Source: Acidobacteriota bacterium
Lineage (GTDB): Bacteria > Acidobacteriota > UBA6911 > RPQK01 > JAJDTT01
Direction: 5' to 3'
Length of the DNA: 64,000 nt
NCBI GenBank assembly: GCA_965263035.1
Contig: OZ253580.1
Location: forward strand, 192,001 to 256,000
The notes beneath the pieces were generated by a model. It saw only the letters and a list, made by a program, of their open reading frames with translations, did not search any database and was not told the origin of the DNA. The first letter of the stretch is position 1; each line of letters starts with the position of its first letter. Positions 2,649 through 54,078 of this stretch are shown here, piece by piece. A program made the position numbers and the translations under genes.

Positions 2649-2806
2649 TAGTCCGTGGTGAAAGTCCCGCGAGCACCGAGACCGTTCCTGCGCCCGCCGG
2701 ACCAGGCGCGATGAGGGAGCATACCGGGAGTATGTGACCGAGTCGCAACGCAGTCCGCCGGGATGCAGGGACGGTCGAATGCCGTGACGACTTTCACCAC
2801 GGACTA
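2649..2806. mobile_element. MITE family A, copy 1 (158 bp)
   Basis: Perfect 18-bp TIR TAGTCCGTGGTGAAAGTC/GACTTTCACCACGGACTA; flanks CTAG/CTAT; near-identical to 13332-13489 and 53919-54078. Confidence 0.9.
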
Positions 2807-8618: not shown

Positions 8619-11080
8619 CTGCCCTTTACCCACATATTGCACAGGGCAAATTAGCCGTCCGGTTTCATTCATGTTTCTTCTCGTAAAGCGAAGCCCAGAC
8701 ACATGCCGTAGAGCGTGACGTAGCCCTGCCACATCAGTTGATGCCCAGGTGGGGAGTCGTGTTTACGAGCCAGATATCCTCCCAGGCGGGCCAGCACGAG
8801 CACGGCCGCCCCCAGGTCTTCCGGCGCTGGGAATCCTCGCGACGCGGCAAACGCCCCCAGGACCCGAATTTCCAGATCCGAGAACAACAATTGCGCCGGC
8901 AGGTCCGGGTCCTCTCGCCCCAACAGCGTCATCAGCATGATCCGCCAGGCGATGACGGCGTGCATGGCGATGGCCCGTTTCAGACGTTCGGCGGTTTGGT
9001 GCTGGAGCTGTTGTACCCGGCATCCGGTCTTGAGCACCCGGAAATAATCCTCCACCCGCCAGCGCAGCGCATACCATCTCAGCAGTTGCTGCGCCGTCTC
9101 GACATCGGTCACCGGCAGGGTGGTGAGCAGGAACCATTCCAGGCGCTTCCCCTGCGCCGGCGGCGCGACCTCCCGCGCGTGCACCACCGACAGTCTCAGC
9201 GACGGGATGCCGGTTGGGTTCCCGCGCGGCGCCGGAATCGTCAGGGTCTCGTAGCGCAGTTCCATCCGAGCCACCCGCGCCAGCCGCCGCGGGCGGGCCG
9301 CCTGCTTGCTGGCCTTGATCCGCGCACTCTGACGCTTCACCTCCAGCAGCATCCGGGCCCGCACCGGCGCCGATCGCAGGCGCCCGAACAGCTTCCGCTT
9401 CTGCTCCGGGTCCGGATCCGCGCTTTTCCCGGCCGCCTTCGCCGGGGTCTTCCTCTTCAGCACCCGATCCTGCTTCGCACGCACCAGCAACTCCACCTCC
9501 GGAGACGCTCGTTGCTCGGCGAACAGTGCGAAAAAATCCGCCTCCCGGTCCACCACGCTGACCACCCGCACCCCGTCGAGGGACCGCGACACCTCGGCGC
9601 AGTCCCGAAGTCCCTCGATCCAGCGATACGTCTTCTTCTTTTTCCGCGTGGCCACCGGTCCCGGCTTCGGCGCGTCCAGCTTCGCCCGCAACACCCCCAG
9701 CGGCAGCCCCGTCTCACTCACCACCAGCGTCGCGTGCAGATGCAGTCCCCGCGCCGTCGCTCCCGTCTGGTTGCGCCCGATCACCCCCAGTCCCTCACAC
9801 CGGCCGTGCCGCGTGAAGTTCAGATCGCTCCCGTCCTGGATGCACAGCACCGTCCGCTGCCCCTGCATCCGCTGCCGGGTCCGCTCCCGGTGCGGGGCCA
9901 GGATGTTGGACACCGTCACCGCCGAGGCTTCCGGCTGGTCGATCAGCCGGTAGTATCCCTTGACCGCCGCCGGATCGCCCCGCGCCACTCCCGTGAACGC
10001 CCGCCCCGGCTCCTGCGCCTGACGGTGCGCACTCTCCACCAGTCGCCGACTCAAGCGCCGGTCTCCCAGCGGCGCCCCGCCCAACTCCTGCTGAGCCCAG
10101 CCCTCTCCCTCCAGTCCCTCGCCCTCCGACATCGGTTCCACTCCCCGCCTCGGCGCCGGTCCCACCCCCAACCGCCGACGCCAATCCCGGCACAACTCAT
10201 ACCCATAGATCGCCTTGCTCGTCTCCGCACCCCGGTGCGCCCGATCTTGCCGGCCTCGACCCTGCGTCTGCCCCAGAACCCTCCAGTTCGTGGCGCGCAA
10301 ACTGGCCCCATCGTGGCGAGCCGTCTCCACGAAGGTCTCCACCAGCCAGGGACGGTAGCCGTAGCGCGCCTGGAACTCCGGACCCAGCCGCCGCAACACC
10401 TCCCCCAGCACCCGGGAGGCCAGATTACGACACCTCACTGACGGACGGATCAGAAACCGGCTCAGCCCCACCACCCGGTGCAGGTGCGCCCGGCGTTGTT
10501 CCTCATCCCATCCGATCCAGCGGTCCCGGTCCCGCAACCGCAACGCCGCCGCCCCGAACCCCAAGCCCCCCAGCCAGCCGTGCGCCGAGCCCACCAGATA
10601 GCGTAGTTGAGCACCCACCAACGGCCCCGCGCCCCGTGGATGCTCTCGCGCCATCAACTCGTTCCAGAGCGCTCGTTGCGGACCCGTCTCCACCAGAATC
10701 AACTCCAGCTCCCGCACGCCGTCCACCGTCTCGGGCACTTCCACCGGCTCCGGCACCGCACGGCCCAGTCCTCGGGGCCCGCAATGTTTCACCCGCCGTC
10801 GCGGCGTCGGCAGACGAATCCGTCCGCCCGCCTCCAGCTCCCGGAGCGCCTTCAGGCAGCCGCTCCGTTGCGCCCGCCCTCGGGCATCGTGAAATCCAAA
10901 CTCCGAGCAGACCCGGTCCGCCAGCGCCGTCCGGTGGGCGAACTTCTCCCGCCTCATCACGGCGTGCAAACGATCCAACTCTCGGCTCAAGGTGCGCTTG
11001 ATCTGGTTCTGAACTACCATGTCGTGAAGACTACGACAGGCATTCTTGTTTGTCCAGCACTATTTGTGGGTATAGGGCAG
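8619..11080 (-). mobile_element. IS4-family (IS50/Tn5-like) insertion sequence, 2462 bp
   Basis: TIRs CTGCCCTTTACCCACATAT / ATTTGTGGGTATAGGGCAG resemble IS50 ends; target duplication TCCTAGC(C/T) once the IS1182 is removed. Confidence 0.88.
8669..11020 (-). CDS. IS4/IS50-like DDE transposase with N-terminal DUF4338-like domain (783 aa)
   Basis: C-terminal part: LGDRRL..RL, IQDGS, DREAD, YALRWRVEDYFRVLK (YREK), LGGYL..K.D.PPG; N-terminal about 290 aa: RDRWIGW, RFLI.P.V...NLAS, ETFV, ATNW..LG.T.GRGRQDR. Confidence 0.88.
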   Translation of the reverse strand: MVVQNQIKRTLSRELDRLHAVMRREKFAHRTALADRVCSEFGFHDARGRAQRSGCLKALRELEAGGRIRLPTPRRRVKHCGPRGLGRAVPEPVEVPETVDGVRELELILVETGPQRALWNELMAREHPRGAGPLVGAQLRYLVGSAHGWLGGLGFGAAALRLRDRDRWIGWDEEQRRAHLHRVVGLSRFLIRPSVRCRNLASRVLGEVLRRLGPEFQARYGYRPWLVETFVETARHDGASLRATNWRVLGQTQGRGRQDRAHRGAETSKAIYGYELCRDWRRRLGVGPAPRRGVEPMSEGEGLEGEGWAQQELGGAPLGDRRLSRRLVESAHRQAQEPGRAFTGVARGDPAAVKGYYRLIDQPEASAVTVSNILAPHRERTRQRMQGQRTVLCIQDGSDLNFTRHGRCEGLGVIGRNQTGATARGLHLHATLVVSETGLPLGVLRAKLDAPKPGPVATRKKKKTYRWIEGLRDCAEVSRSLDGVRVVSVVDREADFFALFAEQRASPEVELLVRAKQDRVLKRKTPAKAAGKSADPDPEQKRKLFGRLRSAPVRARMLLEVKRQSARIKASKQAARPRRLARVARMELRYETLTIPAPRGNPTGIPSLRLSVVHAREVAPPAQGKRLEWFLLTTLPVTDVETAQQLLRWYALRWRVEDYFRVLKTGCRVQQLQHQTAERLKRAIAMHAVIAWRIMLMTLLGREDPDLPAQLLFSDLEIRVLGAFAASRGFPAPEDLGAAVLVLARLGGYLARKHDSPPGHQLMWQGYVTLYGMCLGFALREET

Positions 11081-11086
11081 TCCTAG

Positions 11087-12685
11087 GAGCCTGCGCTTTA
11101 GAAAGTTTGTGGGACGATGCAGACTGTCGGTTCCCGCATTGACGATCCCTATCGCAACAATTCTTCCGGTCGGCAGTCAGGGGGAACTCCCGAGACCCGA
11201 CTCTTGGAACGAGAAAACCGGTTGCGGCGGGCTCGGAACCTCGTCGGCACCTCTGATTCGCACCGCTGGGGAGCCATTTTCAGTGGAACGCTCCTCATTT
11301 ACGTCGCGATCAAGGTTTGCAGCCGTTTCACGTTCAGCGCCAGACACACCAAGTCCCACTCCCCTTGCACCTTCTGGAGTCCTCGAAGGCTGAAACGCCG
11401 AAATCCCAGCACTTCCTTGATCCAGCCGTGGGCCGCTTCGGACCGCCATTTGCGGGTGGCGTATAGCGCCCGGCCCGCCGCCGTCGTCAGTTTCTCCGCC
11501 ATCTGCCAAGTCGCCGGTGCCGTCTTCGGATCTCCGCTTTTCGTCGCCTTCTTCCCCTCCCGCCCCAGCGCCACGTAACCGTCGATGCCCCGCGTCTCCA
11601 GTTCGGCCAAGTCCCGTTCGTTGGCGTAATTCGAATCCGCCAGGATCGTCTCCGGCTGTCGTTCGTAGGTCTCCTTCACCGCATCCAGTTGCGCGATCAT
11701 CTGACCTTGGTCGCTCGCGTTATCCGTCACTTCCGTCGCCACGATCAACTGATTCGCTCCCTCCACCGTCACCTGCGCGTTGTAGCACTGCTGGAACCCC
11801 TCGGTGCTCGTCTTCATGATCCCGCTCTCCGGATCCGTGAAGTTGCTCTGCGCCTTCGGGTCCGGTTCCCCGTAGGCCCGTTTGTACGGCGGCCCTCCCT
11901 TCGGATTCCGATCCTGTCCCGGCTTCCGGCCCCGGGCGTCATCCGCCGCTCGTGGCTTCGCCTCGAGGCGCTCTTGGGCCGCCTGAATCGCCGCCAGACG
12001 TGTCTTCCGCCGACGCAGATCCTTCGGCACCTCATCCCCCCGATTCGCCTCCCCATACCGAGCGTCTTCCTCGGCATCCGTCTCTCCCGCCCTTCGCAGC
12101 AACTCCCGGATCTCCTCCTCCAGTCGGCGTTTCGCCTCCGGCATCCGCTCGTAGCTCATCGCCTTGCGCTTGCTCGCATTCGCCCGCACCTTCGTGCCGT
12201 CGATCGACAACTTCCCGAAACTCACCAGCCCCAGTTCCCGCGCCAGCCCGATCACCTCCACGAACAGCTTCCGGAAGTCCTCCAAATGCCGGCGACGAAA
12301 CTCGCAGATCGTCCGATGCTTCGGGAAATTCCCCGCCGCCAGCATCCGATACGCCAGATCCTCTTCCAACTTCTTCGCCATCCCTCGCGATGAGAACCCC
12401 CCCGTCGCATACCCGTAGATCAGGATCTTCACCATCATCCTCGGCTCATACGGCGTGTTGCGCCGTCCGTCCCCTTCATAGGGGGCGTAAAACGCCGTCA
12501 GGTCCAGCCGGTCCACCAGATCGCTCACGTGGTGCGCCAAATGGTCCTCCGACAACCAGTCCCGCAGATCCGGCGGCAACAACAGCTTCTGCTTCGGGTG
12601 GTAGGGACGAAACGTCGTTGGCATCCAACACCTCCGTCATCTATTCTCCCATCATCGTGAGACGCTGTTTCTACGGCGCAGACTC
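11087..12685 (-). mobile_element. IS1182-family insertion sequence, 1599 bp
   Basis: TIRs GAGCCTGCGCTTTAGAAA / TTTCTACGGCGCAGACTC; CTAG duplication at 11083-11086 and 12686-12689. Confidence 0.9.
11299..12624 (-). CDS. IS1182-family transposase
   Basis: YEPRMMVKILIYGY, IDGTK..ANAS, TDPES, YNAQ, ADSNY, RK..SE..HG.IK...GFRRFSLRG; GGAGG RBS. Confidence 0.92.
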   Translation of the reverse strand: MPTTFRPYHPKQKLLLPPDLRDWLSEDHLAHHVSDLVDRLDLTAFYAPYEGDGRRNTPYEPRMMVKILIYGYATGGFSSRGMAKKLEEDLAYRMLAAGNFPKHRTICEFRRRHLEDFRKLFVEVIGLARELGLVSFGKLSIDGTKVRANASKRKAMSYERMPEAKRRLEEEIRELLRRAGETDAEEDARYGEANRGDEVPKDLRRRKTRLAAIQAAQERLEAKPRAADDARGRKPGQDRNPKGGPPYKRAYGEPDPKAQSNFTDPESGIMKTSTEGFQQCYNAQVTVEGANQLIVATEVTDNASDQGQMIAQLDAVKETYERQPETILADSNYANERDLAELETRGIDGYVALGREGKKATKSGDPKTAPATWQMAEKLTTAAGRALYATRKWRSEAAHGWIKEVLGFRRFSLRGLQKVQGEWDLVCLALNVKRLQTLIAT

Positions 12686-12693
12686 CTAGCTTC

Positions 12694-13506
12694 TCACCGG
12701 GCCGCAACTTCCCGTTCGGATTTCGGAGGCTCCATGAAGTCGGACCAGATGCGGTCCAGGCGCTTCTCGAAAACGGTGAAGGCGTTGGCCCGAAAGAGGC
12801 GCCAGTCACCGCGGTTCAATTCCGAATCGAGCTGTCCCGAAGCCCATCCTGAATGCCCGACGAAGAGGCGGAGTTGGTGGGATTCCCTTTCCTCTTCCAG
12901 AAGACGCTCCAGCGTCTTCTTGTCGCCTCCGAAGTAGACGTCCCCCATCACATGCGTCGACTGTTCCAGCGGGTCCTCACTCCGGATCAGAAACATGAGC
13001 GTATCCAGACCCACCGGGCCTCCGTAGTAGAGTCGGGCCTTCCGACCTGGTGTTTCAAGCTGGGGCAGGACATCCTTCAAAGAGACCTTGGTAGCCCGGT
13101 TGACGATCACACCCAGCGTTCCGCCCGGGCCGTGGGCCACGAGCAGGACCACGGATTGGCGAAACCGGGGGTCGAGCATCCCCTTCCGGGCGACCAGGAA
13201 CACCCCCTTGCCCGGCTGGACCGCTTGATAGGGAATGCGGGGCCGCGGCTTTGGAATGGAAGCGGCTTCCGTTTCCATTCCGACACCCTGGCAGACCTGG
13301 AGCAGAACGCCCAGGGCCGCCCATCGCTTGACAGTCCGTGGCAAAAGTCCCGCGAGCACCGAGACCGTTCCTGCGCCCGCCGGACAAGGCGCGACGAGGG
13401 AGCATACCGGGAGTATGTGACCGAGTCGCAACGCAGTCCGCCGGGATGCAGGGACGGTCGAATGCCGTGACGACTTTTGCCACGGGCTGTTGAGGCTGAC
13501 CCGCAT
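12694..13506 (-). CDS. YqgE/AlgH (UPF0301) family protein with signal-peptide-like N-terminus carrying an in-frame MITE
   Basis: DPRFRQSVVLL..H...GTLGVIVNR, YGGPV, FVGHSGWASGQL..EL..GDW; ATG 13506. Confidence 0.85.
   Translation of the reverse strand: MRVSLNSPWQKSSRHSTVPASRRTALRLGHILPVCSLVAPCPAGAGTVSVLAGLLPRTVKRWAALGVLLQVCQGVGMETEAASIPKPRPRIPYQAVQPGKGVFLVARKGMLDPRFRQSVVLLVAHGPGGTLGVIVNRATKVSLKDVLPQLETPGRKARLYYGGPVGLDTLMFLIRSEDPLEQSTHVMGDVYFGGDKKTLERLLEEERESHQLRLFVGHSGWASGQLDSELNRGDWRLFRANAFTVFEKRLDRIWSDFMEPPKSEREVAAR
13332..13489. mobile_element. MITE family A, copy 2 (158 bp)
   Basis: TIRs CAGTCCGTGGCAAAAGTC / GACTTTTGCCACGGGCTG; TTGA duplication at 13328-13331 and 13490-13493. Confidence 0.92.
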
Positions 13507-13523
13507 GGTTGCCGCCCAGTCTA

Positions 13524-14915
13524 CTACGATGATGGGACCCGAGAAAGAAGCGACTGCCCGACGAACGTGCCCCGCGGTTTGAGCATCAGCCAGAACAGAG
13601 CCGCCACCACGTACACGCCACAGAACACCCACAAGACCGGGGTCCAGTTGTCACCCGACGGTCCCAATAGCAACGGAACCACGACGGGAAACACTGCCGC
13701 TCCCAAATTCCCCGCCATGTTCATGGTGCCGAAGATCGTCGCCACGTTGTTCCCTCCCATGGCGATGGTCAGGGAATTGACGATGGGGCTGACGAGAGCG
13801 CCAAAGAAGCCACCCACCCCAATGAGAGAGACGGCAAGCAGGGGACTGTGAACCAGACATCCAGCCACCGTGAGCAGGACTCCGACCATGAGGCAGCCCA
13901 AGGCCATCCCTTTCCGGGCCATTGCCGCATTCCCGCTTCTGGAGTAGATCCAATCGGAGGCGATACCACCCAACGGTCCCCCGAATAGAATCGCAATCAG
14001 GGGAACACTCGTCAGCAGGCCCGACTCGGCCACCGAGACGCCTCGCGCTTCCTGCAGATAGGTGGGAAACCAGCTGGCATAAAAAATATACCCGGCGGCC
14101 CGGAAGAACTGCTGCCCGCAGATGGCCCACATGGCCGGACTCGCGGCCAGATGCTTCCAGGGCGTCCTGCCGGGTCGGCCGCGGTCCGATCCCTCGTCCG
14201 CCGCCCCTTTCGCTTCCTGGGTGGCCTTGGACTCGGCCAGCAGAAGATCCAGTTCTCCCGGCGTCACGGAGGCATGGTCCTGAGGGCGGTCACGAAACCA
14301 ACGATAGAACAGAAGCGCCCAGATCCCCCCCGGAAGCGCGTAGAGGACGAAGAGCCAACGCCAGCCAACACCCCATTCCAAAAGAATCCCGGTCAGGAAG
14401 GCGACGAGGATGGCTCCTATCTGCATCCCGGCTCCGAGAGAGCCACTCGAAACGGCCAACCGGTTCACCGGCATCCATCTCGACAACACGACCGCGGAAC
14501 AGGGGAAGAGGCCCGCCTGGGCGACTCCGGAGAACATGCGGGGGACCAGCAACCAGAGGTAGGCCGCCACAATCGCTCCCGCCGGTCCCGCCAGCCAGAG
14601 GGCCAATGCCGTTCCCGCCAACGCCGACAGCATGGTGCAGACCGACCAGACCACCGAGTAGAACGGGAGGGTCCGGCGGGCGCCCCAGCGATCTCCCAGC
14701 CAGCCGGCCGGCACCTGGAATCCGGCGTAGACCCAGAAGAAGCCGCTCAGGATCCACCCCATCTGCTCCTTGCTCAGTCCCAGATCGGCCCGGATCGTGC
14801 TCTCGGCCACCGAGATGTAGTTGCGCTGGATGTAGGCGATGGCGGCCGCCACGCAGAGCCAGACCAGGACGGAGTAACGGACCCGGCTCCGAGGAGGGGA
14901 CGGGGTAGCGGTCAG
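13524..14915 (-). CDS. MFS transporter (anion:cation symporter/sugar-acid type); probable CTG start
   Basis: AYIQR, GWLGDRWGARR, multiple TM helices; the frame extends upstream of GTG 14852 to CTG 14915, 6 nt after GGAGG. Confidence 0.85.
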   Translation of the reverse strand: MTATPSPPRSRVRYSVLVWLCVAAAIAYIQRNYISVAESTIRADLGLSKEQMGWILSGFFWVYAGFQVPAGWLGDRWGARRTLPFYSVVWSVCTMLSALAGTALALWLAGPAGAIVAAYLWLLVPRMFSGVAQAGLFPCSAVVLSRWMPVNRLAVSSGSLGAGMQIGAILVAFLTGILLEWGVGWRWLFVLYALPGGIWALLFYRWFRDRPQDHASVTPGELDLLLAESKATQEAKGAADEGSDRGRPGRTPWKHLAASPAMWAICGQQFFRAAGYIFYASWFPTYLQEARGVSVAESGLLTSVPLIAILFGGPLGGIASDWIYSRSGNAAMARKGMALGCLMVGVLLTVAGCLVHSPLLAVSLIGVGGFFGALVSPIVNSLTIAMGGNNVATIFGTMNMAGNLGAAVFPVVVPLLLGPSGDNWTPVLWVFCGVYVVAALFWLMLKPRGTFVGQSLLSRVPSS

Positions 14916-53918: not shown

Positions 53919-54078
53919 CAGTCCGTGGTGAAAGTCCCGCGAGCACCGAGACCGTTCCTGCGCCCGCCGGACCAGGCGCAACGGAGGGAGCATACCGGGA
54001 GTATGTGAGCCGATAGCAACGCAGTCCGCGCACGATGCAGGGACGGTCGAATGCCGTGACGACTTTTGCCACGGGCTG
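53919..54078. mobile_element. MITE family A, copy 3 (160 bp)
   Basis: TIRs CAGTCCGTGGTGAAAGTC / GACTTTTGCCACGGGCTG; TTAA duplication at 53915-53918 and 54079-54082. Confidence 0.92.

Follow-up and report, generated by a model that had tools for sequence, protein, structure and literature searches.

Rickettsia palindromic elements (RPEs; Ogata et al. 2000, via the review PMC10969869) are mobile palindromic repeats of about 150 bp that, as far as the consulted text of that review goes, occur in frame in unrelated protein genes, adding a peptide without destroying the gene. Similarly, the ERIC, BOX and Anabaena MITE repeats are presented in the consulted parts of two reports (PMC10969869, PMC3184786) as small repeats whose open frames are fused to host genes internally or at their 3' or 5' ends, extensions of the 5' end being named in PMC3184786; signal peptides are not mentioned in those parts, in contrast to the element described here. 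A search of the literature, in which texts were available in part, yielded no description of a MITE lying in frame within a signal peptide.

Here, we analysed a MITE in a sponge-associated acidobacterium (Acidobacteriota bacterium GCA_965263035.1, contig OZ253580.1; genome G000), starting from a stretch of 64,000 nucleotides, referred to below as the window. Like RPEs, this MITE is inserted in frame, in at least seven genes of G000, where it adds a peptide and leaves the gene intact. The first-pass annotation had drawn the parallel with RPEs, and as a way of working it is borne out by at least six further in-frame copies in genes of G000; the two are likened by mode of action, not by sequence, and the host phylum differs (here Acidobacteriota). 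Unlike RPEs, the MITE is mostly intergenic (10 of 157 copies lie deep in coding sequence), shows clear 4-bp target duplications together with excision remnants, and has four of its seven genic copies in signal-peptide regions. With MITEs moved by IS5/IS1182-type elements it shares a 4-bp duplication centred on TA (N-T-A-N) and short inverted ends; however, no autonomous element with the MITE ends was found in G000, and the ends of the adjacent IS are unlike them. In-frame MITE fusions are already known, and the case centred on in this report, in a DUF179 gene, is a well-documented tolerated insertion of this known kind.

The element in the window (Table 1) runs from CAGTCCGTGG to CCACGGGCTG (13332-13489), and its inverted arms (13331-13349 and 13472-13490) are 19 nt long and 95% complementary. 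Together with one copy of the duplication it measures 158 + 4 = 162 nt, or 54 codons, and since it contains no stop codon on the coding strand the reading frame survives, exactly as the earlier annotation had stated; both the coordinates and the open reading frame agree with it. The resulting stop-free minus-strand ORF (12694..13632) reads ...MRVSL-NSPWQKSSRH...LLPRTV-KRWAALGVLLQVCQGVGMETEAAS..., the insertion point lying five codons past the start of a DUF179/AlgH-like gene (ATG at 13506). Assignment of this gene is based on a match to Pfam PF02622 (DUF179) that scores 128.3 bits (gathering cut-off 27; E = 3.3e-37), covers profile positions 2-154 of 157 and places the domain at residues 109-259 of 270 (window 12730-13182). 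Ahead of the domain, the sequence KR-WAALGVLLQV-CQGVG has, by eye, the Sec signal-peptide pattern of a charged n-region, a hydrophobic core and small residues at -3 and -1, with an 11-residue hydropathy peak of 1.92. The MITE is placed between the conserved start and the predicted hydrophobic core of a signal-peptide-like N-terminus. The 54-residue insert itself contains six K+R, two H and no D+E, and is also moderately hydrophobic in part, its best 19-residue Kyte-Doolittle window scoring 1.66.

Table 1 Features of the DUF179/AlgH-like locus and of further MITE copies (window positions unless a contig of G000 is named).
Feature	Position	Strand	Basis or remark
MITE proper, 158 bp	13332..13489		mRNA of the gene corresponds to the minus strand, which is stop-free in all frames
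Target-site duplication TTGA (coding strand TCAA), gene-body side	13328..13331		only one TCAA in the empty allele of G005
Target-site duplication TTGA, start-codon side	13490..13493		comparison with G005
DUF179/AlgH-like gene from the ancestral ATG, 270 aa + stop	12694..13506	-	Pfam
Conserved ATG, ancestral start	13504..13506	-	in 9/9 genomes of the genus
KRWAALGVLLQVCQGVG: end of n-region, hydrophobic core and c-region of the signal-peptide-like N-terminus	13279..13329	-	hydropathy and conservation
In-frame GTG (codon 50) within the MITE, possible internal start	13357..13359	-	AGGA 9 nt upstream
In-frame TTG (codon 55) within the MITE, possible internal start	13342..13344	-	frame reading
6-nt insertion ATGGAA (M-E), G000 only	13273..13278	-	makes the in-frame ATG of METEAAS
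MFS transporter gene upstream, same strand	13524..14852	-	stop 17 nt before the ATG
MITE family copy	2649..2806		within the window
MITE family copy, TTAA-flanked	53919..54078		within the window
N-terminal copies (PD40, PPC and TPR genes)	G000:C1:5881407-5881566, 5204395-5204554, 4362698-4362857		loci L161-L187
Sulfatase gene copy (P0001, L026)	G000:C1:2141730-2143370		insert at residues ~154-207, different element frame
Tyrosine recombinase gene copy	G000:C1:4175992-4176936		L032
1096-residue open frame: PD40-like repeats (by eye), then FG-GAP/ASPIC domains	G000:C1:3370894-3374181		L030

The element belongs to a large family. An 18-nt end motif matched seven times in the window (at most three mismatches) against 0.07 matches expected from shuffles, and a blastn search of the 6.2-Mb single-contig genome with the element gave 198 HSPs, 157 of which were full-length copies. 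These copies measure 158 bp (42), 159 bp (30), 160 bp (60), 161 bp (18) or other lengths (7), ranging from 146 to 163 bp, and are too short for a transposase gene. Their ends, 19-nt terminal inverted repeats in the copy studied here, are conserved across all 157, and identical 4-bp flanks with the consensus N-T-A-N are present in 76 of the 157, including TTAA (24), ATAT (8), CTAG (7) and TTGA (5). Taken together, this supports the identification of the element as a MITE with a 4-bp target duplication. Rfam held no family for it, the sole row being mir-128 (E = 0.37) outside the element, and a scan of 13150-13700 returned zero promoter-like and zero terminator-like sites.

The strand that is sense in the DUF179 gene is stop-free in 143, 125 and 150 of the 157 copies in its three frames, compared with just 28, 10 and 30 for the other strand. 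It had been proposed at the outset that the length and the open frame of the element allow it to enter genes; this applies to some copies, but element plus duplication is divisible by three in just 62 of the 157. The open frame is a property of one strand, and the absence of stops from that strand of the consensus is not unusual for its composition (dinucleotide shuffles, P = 0.12), leaving selection for open frames in the family unsupported. As a whole the family avoids coding sequence, the 10 sites deep in it comparing with 61% of 3000 random sites in a test in which the element was removed in silico and gene positions came from a crude custom gene caller. A possible orientation bias relative to neighbouring genes was weak (87 versus 63 at 5' ends, 75 versus 59 at 3' ends; counts obtained with the crude custom gene caller, and not independent of each other).

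In the gene, the mRNA strand of the MITE copy is predicted to form a long hairpin that begins about 19 nt past the ATG, at -105.2 kcal/mol (z = -5.8), and a more stable fold is predicted for the opposite, non-coding-side strand (-120.9 kcal/mol, z = -9.9). In most copies, for example at window 2649-2806, the two ends are unlike (GTGAAAG versus GCAAAAG), so that the hairpin has G-U pairs on one strand only.

No autonomous partner with the same ends was found in G000 among end-like motif pairs 170-4000 bp apart. A 2059-bp candidate proved to be an unrelated transposase gene (Pfam DDE_Tnp_1_4) with end matches by chance, and 'solo' 57-nt matches turned out not to be the ends of a larger element; they represent a shorter derivative that is itself mobile and flanked by CTAG-like repeats of its own. 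This 57-bp derivative starts at an internal CAGTCCGC, which mimics the left end, and is found at positions 1392150, 2417891, 2892441, 3604789 and 3757229 of G000:C1, among others. Next to the DUF179 gene, window 11299-12690 holds an IS with a DUF772 + DDE_Tnp_1 transposase (IS5/IS1182-like), which ends in ...CTAG a few bases past the stop codon of the gene; homology to G003 ends at 12688, and a second genomic copy of this IS has 81% identity. It too was rejected as a partner, its end ...GCAGACTCCTAG being unlike the MITE ends. A different repeat of about 186 bp lies at window 10901-11086 and has at least 13 further genomic copies at 97-100% identity; several 158-bp MITE copies adjoin its ...CTAGGAG(C/T)CTGCG end. 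Among the matches listed for the exact 21-nt end of the MITE are numerous Acidobacteriota MAGs whose labels span several orders and, outside the host phylum, at least two Planctomycetota MAGs labelled Phycisphaerales and Tepidisphaerales.

Comparison with relatives revealed several alleles of the site. A search with the part of the protein past the element gave matches in 25 of 41 genomes (G000 included), with one orthologue in each of the eight other genomes of the genus. G005 carries the empty site, ATGCGGATCAGCC-TCAA-GCGTTGG, with a single TCAA, which translates to MRISLKRWVALGVLFQVCQ; its N-terminus, MRISLKRWVALG..., is the one that had been predicted to reappear once the element is removed. 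Empty sites, suggested earlier as the thing to look for in close relatives, are also present in P0010 to P0013 (MRV[ST]LK...), and the N-terminus MRVSLKRW, on whose presence in orthologues the first-pass annotation had made its case depend, occurs exactly in G005, P0011 and others. In G007 the site is occupied: the element has the same position as in G000 and is in frame as well (+162 nt in both). G002 and G003 have an additional 18 nt made up of 4 + 10 nt of the MITE ends and the second duplication, G006 shows a 165-nt deletion relative to the occupied allele, between two GTCA repeats, and G001, G004 and G008 have an additional 6 nt, probably a worn TCAA-CA-TCAA remnant. In a DNA alignment of the nine genomes, all length differences between the ATG and the hydrophobic core are divisible by three. 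This argument is weaker for the 4+2-nt excision remnant, which is in frame by mechanism alone; nevertheless, remnant lengths provide independent evidence for the frame, unlike the N-terminal copies in other genes, which were chosen by their open frame.

In a tree of the flanks (2012 columns), G000, G007, G006, G003 and G002 form one clade with support 100/100, from which it follows that the element was present early in the clade and has since been lost on at least two occasions, always in frame. Between the G000 and G007 copies there are 9 differences in 158 positions, five of them clustered in a variant that other copies share, and the G000 copy has 97-99% identity with others in its own genome despite a dS of 0.21 between the G000 and G007 genes, both occupied. 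Given this similarity at such a dS, the history may include gene conversion or re-insertion, and not one old insertion; either event, at a favoured site, is possible on these sequence comparisons.

Two further sequences carry the insert. P0004 (96% identical) has it, with the +162 nt judged from the protein, and lacks the M-E of METEAAS. In P0005, on a JGI contig, an insert of 54 residues occupies the same position; it is open and matches G000 at only 26 of 54 residues, conservation being much higher in the remainder of the protein. The best MITE copy for the P0005 insert, among 76 genomes of the order, reached 57%, and the lack of a closer copy fits divergence in place. When a 54-codon frame was taken to the divergence of P0005 under a random-substitution model, it stayed open in about 34% of trials, so the open frame of P0005 is supporting, not decisive. 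The JGI metagenome contigs contained only one more locus, 60% identical, which ends before the N-terminus and is uninformative for the allele.

The start and the N-terminus are conserved along with these changes. The ATG at 13506 is retained in all nine genomes of the genus, public gene calls for P0004-P0014 begin at its equivalent, and in G005, G003 and G002 no other in-frame ATG, GTG or TTG was seen upstream of the hydrophobic core. A signal-peptide-like N-terminus is present in all eight same-genus orthologues, and a hydrophobic N-terminus, judged by eye, in 19 of 19 related loci, among them loci of the sister genus and of further families in the order. Conservation beyond the genus indicates that the hydrophobic stretch belongs to the protein, with the start upstream of the insertion site. 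In the mature part, dN/dS was 0.11-0.19 for pairs with G000, 0.07-0.14 for other pairs and 0.074 for G007 versus G006. This shows that the mature part is under purifying selection and, on substitution evidence, that the gene works with the element in place. The insertion ATGGAA, specific to G000, is absent from all eight same-genus orthologues, from P0004 and from the RNA-library contig X17 record 17, and is younger than the MITE insertion; in G007, an ATG immediately follows the element. Both the G000-specific ATG and the G007 ATG may be escape starts.

At least seven G000 genes contain the MITE in frame (those for the DUF179 protein, a PD40 propeller, a PPC-domain protein, a TPR protein, a sulfatase, a tyrosine recombinase and a PD40/FG-GAP protein), four of the seven in signal-peptide regions and three internally. 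The first-pass annotation had proposed looking for other in-frame copies, and such copies of the element are present in at least six further genes. All genic in-frame copies lie on the stop-free strand with length + 4 divisible by three; the N-terminal cases were found by requiring an open frame from an upstream ATG, so that their in-frame state is partly by construction. The PD40 beta-propeller, TolB-like protein reads MLPAISTL-[54]-LATVLILMLVAPTGMA, and its gene is also occupied in G006 (165-nt insertion) and empty in G002, G004 and G005; G007 and G008 keep remnants of +6 nt, G003 one of +9 nt, and in G001 there is a duplication of 24 nt. The PPC-domain protein (~860 aa) reads MMEI-[54]-SRSIFRGFLIVSLVAPLLG, with G002 occupied too and the seven other genomes empty. 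In the TPR protein gene the element lies in frame between the start codon and the hydrophobic core. The element frame used in the PD40, PPC and TPR genes is free of ATG, GTG and TTG, and the G002 allele of the PPC protein has no start-like codon between codons 2 and 95; its hydrophobic core could accordingly be made only by reading through the element, which, as judged from the codons present, provides the strongest indirect argument that this MITE family is read through.

Among the internal cases, the copy in the sulfatase gene falls within the catalytic domain, where the Pfam Sulfatase match (29-361) spans the insert, and a G007 homologue (49-51% identical) is collinear without it. Six further sites that an excision test flagged as genic were rejected and left out of the in-frame counts: their sense strand is the stop-bearing one and most are out of frame, possibly reflecting antisense artefacts or broken genes. 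In-frame candidates at G000 443170, 704382, 2795242 and others, for which there was no orthologue comparison, were likewise left out of the counts.

Four RNA-library runs were also used, all as contigs, with depth not taken as a measure of expression; the runs containing this stretch include metatranscriptomes labelled sponge metagenome. X15 record 11 covers 12908-13373 without differences, from the coding region into the element; X17 record 17 likewise extends from the coding region into the element, and X17 record 24 from the element into the MFS gene. These contigs are compatible with the element lying within the transcript and do not prove transcription. A low-depth X15 contig that skips 13332-13496 was considered as a sign of excision in G000; it matches the G006-type allele and was taken to come from a related strain.

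We consider it probable, at roughly 0.6, that the MITE inserted into the n-region, that translation starts at the old ATG and reads through the 54 residues, and that the change is near-neutral. According to this model, a non-autonomous cut-and-paste transposon inserted at TCAA, five codons past the start and within the positively charged n-region, with the reading frame surviving thanks to the 162-nt insertion and its stop-free strand. Ribosomes would start at the old ATG (13506), add a basic stretch of 54 residues that lacks acidic ones, and go on to the hydrophobic core, which is unchanged; the added part would then stay cytoplasmic and be lost with the signal peptide, leaving the mature protein unchanged and making the insertion nearly neutral. 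The insert charge suits an n-region, while the hairpin near the start may hinder translation and the hydrophobic stretch of the insert could serve as a membrane segment, with a different topology as the result. What the sequences establish directly is the element with its duplication, the empty site, the preserved frame and start codon, and purifying selection acting on the gene; that ribosomes read through the element, that the putative signal peptide is cleaved and that the change is neutral are predictions from sequence comparison.

Alternatively, the element itself may supply the start. Initiation at the GTG (13359) or the TTG (13344), both in frame, would give M-LAGLLPRTVKRWAALGVLLQVCQGVG..., a signal peptide of ordinary length in which a charged n-region of the usual kind leads into the same hydrophobic core, the first 49-54 codons forming an untranslated leader, and AGGA is found 9 nt before the GTG. 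We regard this as unlikely: both codons sit in a base-paired arm of the -105 kcal/mol hairpin, the PD40 and PPC genes use a frame without start codons (in G002, none before codon 95), which makes read-through necessary if those proteins are exported, and all alleles at the DUF179 site are in frame with the upstream ATG, which a start inside the element does not require. It is rather improbable that G000 starts at the ATG at 13278 (METEAAS), which would produce a cytoplasmic DUF179 protein and reduce the element and the old signal peptide to a dead leader. Well-studied members of the DUF179/AlgH-like (YqgE) family are cytoplasmic, and ATGGAA, missing from all the relatives compared, is newer than the MITE; however, the close MITE-bearing alleles of P0004 and G007 lack this ATG, the hydrophobic N-terminus of all 19 related loci suggests that export or membrane anchoring matters, and by reading no strong ribosome-binding motif is apparent before 13278. 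The open frame might also be an accident, the true start lying past the insertion site and the element being intergenic, with a stop-free strand that extends any downstream gene. The rarity of stops in the coding-side strand across the 157 copies, their unremarkable absence given the composition, and the many copies just upstream of genes that give such false extensions all fit this idea; it is already disfavoured and, in our view, highly improbable, as G005, G003 and G002 have no start-like codon between the conserved ATG and the hydrophobic core, all length variants in that stretch are multiples of three, and public gene calls start at the equivalent of the ATG at 13506.

A wider pattern is put forward as tentative and on balance doubtful: signal-peptide n-regions may be a general safe harbour, with the MITE entering and leaving the same codons across species, so that 6-, 9- and 18-nt remnants or 54-codon inserts vary the length of export signals, and the hairpin or the basic peptide may tune translation or export instead of being carried along passively. 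The four genes found here suggest a general rule, that the part of exported proteins that is cleaved off tolerates such elements inside genes; we did not find this rule stated in the literature searched, which was available in part. The locus offers a natural experiment on the lengthening of an export signal, with empty, occupied, remnant and deleted alleles and purifying selection in all of them. In practice, because one strand of the element is stop-free in every frame, gene callers will extend genes or misplace starts around it, and 54-residue peptides in predicted Acidobacteriota proteins should be recognised as transposon-derived.
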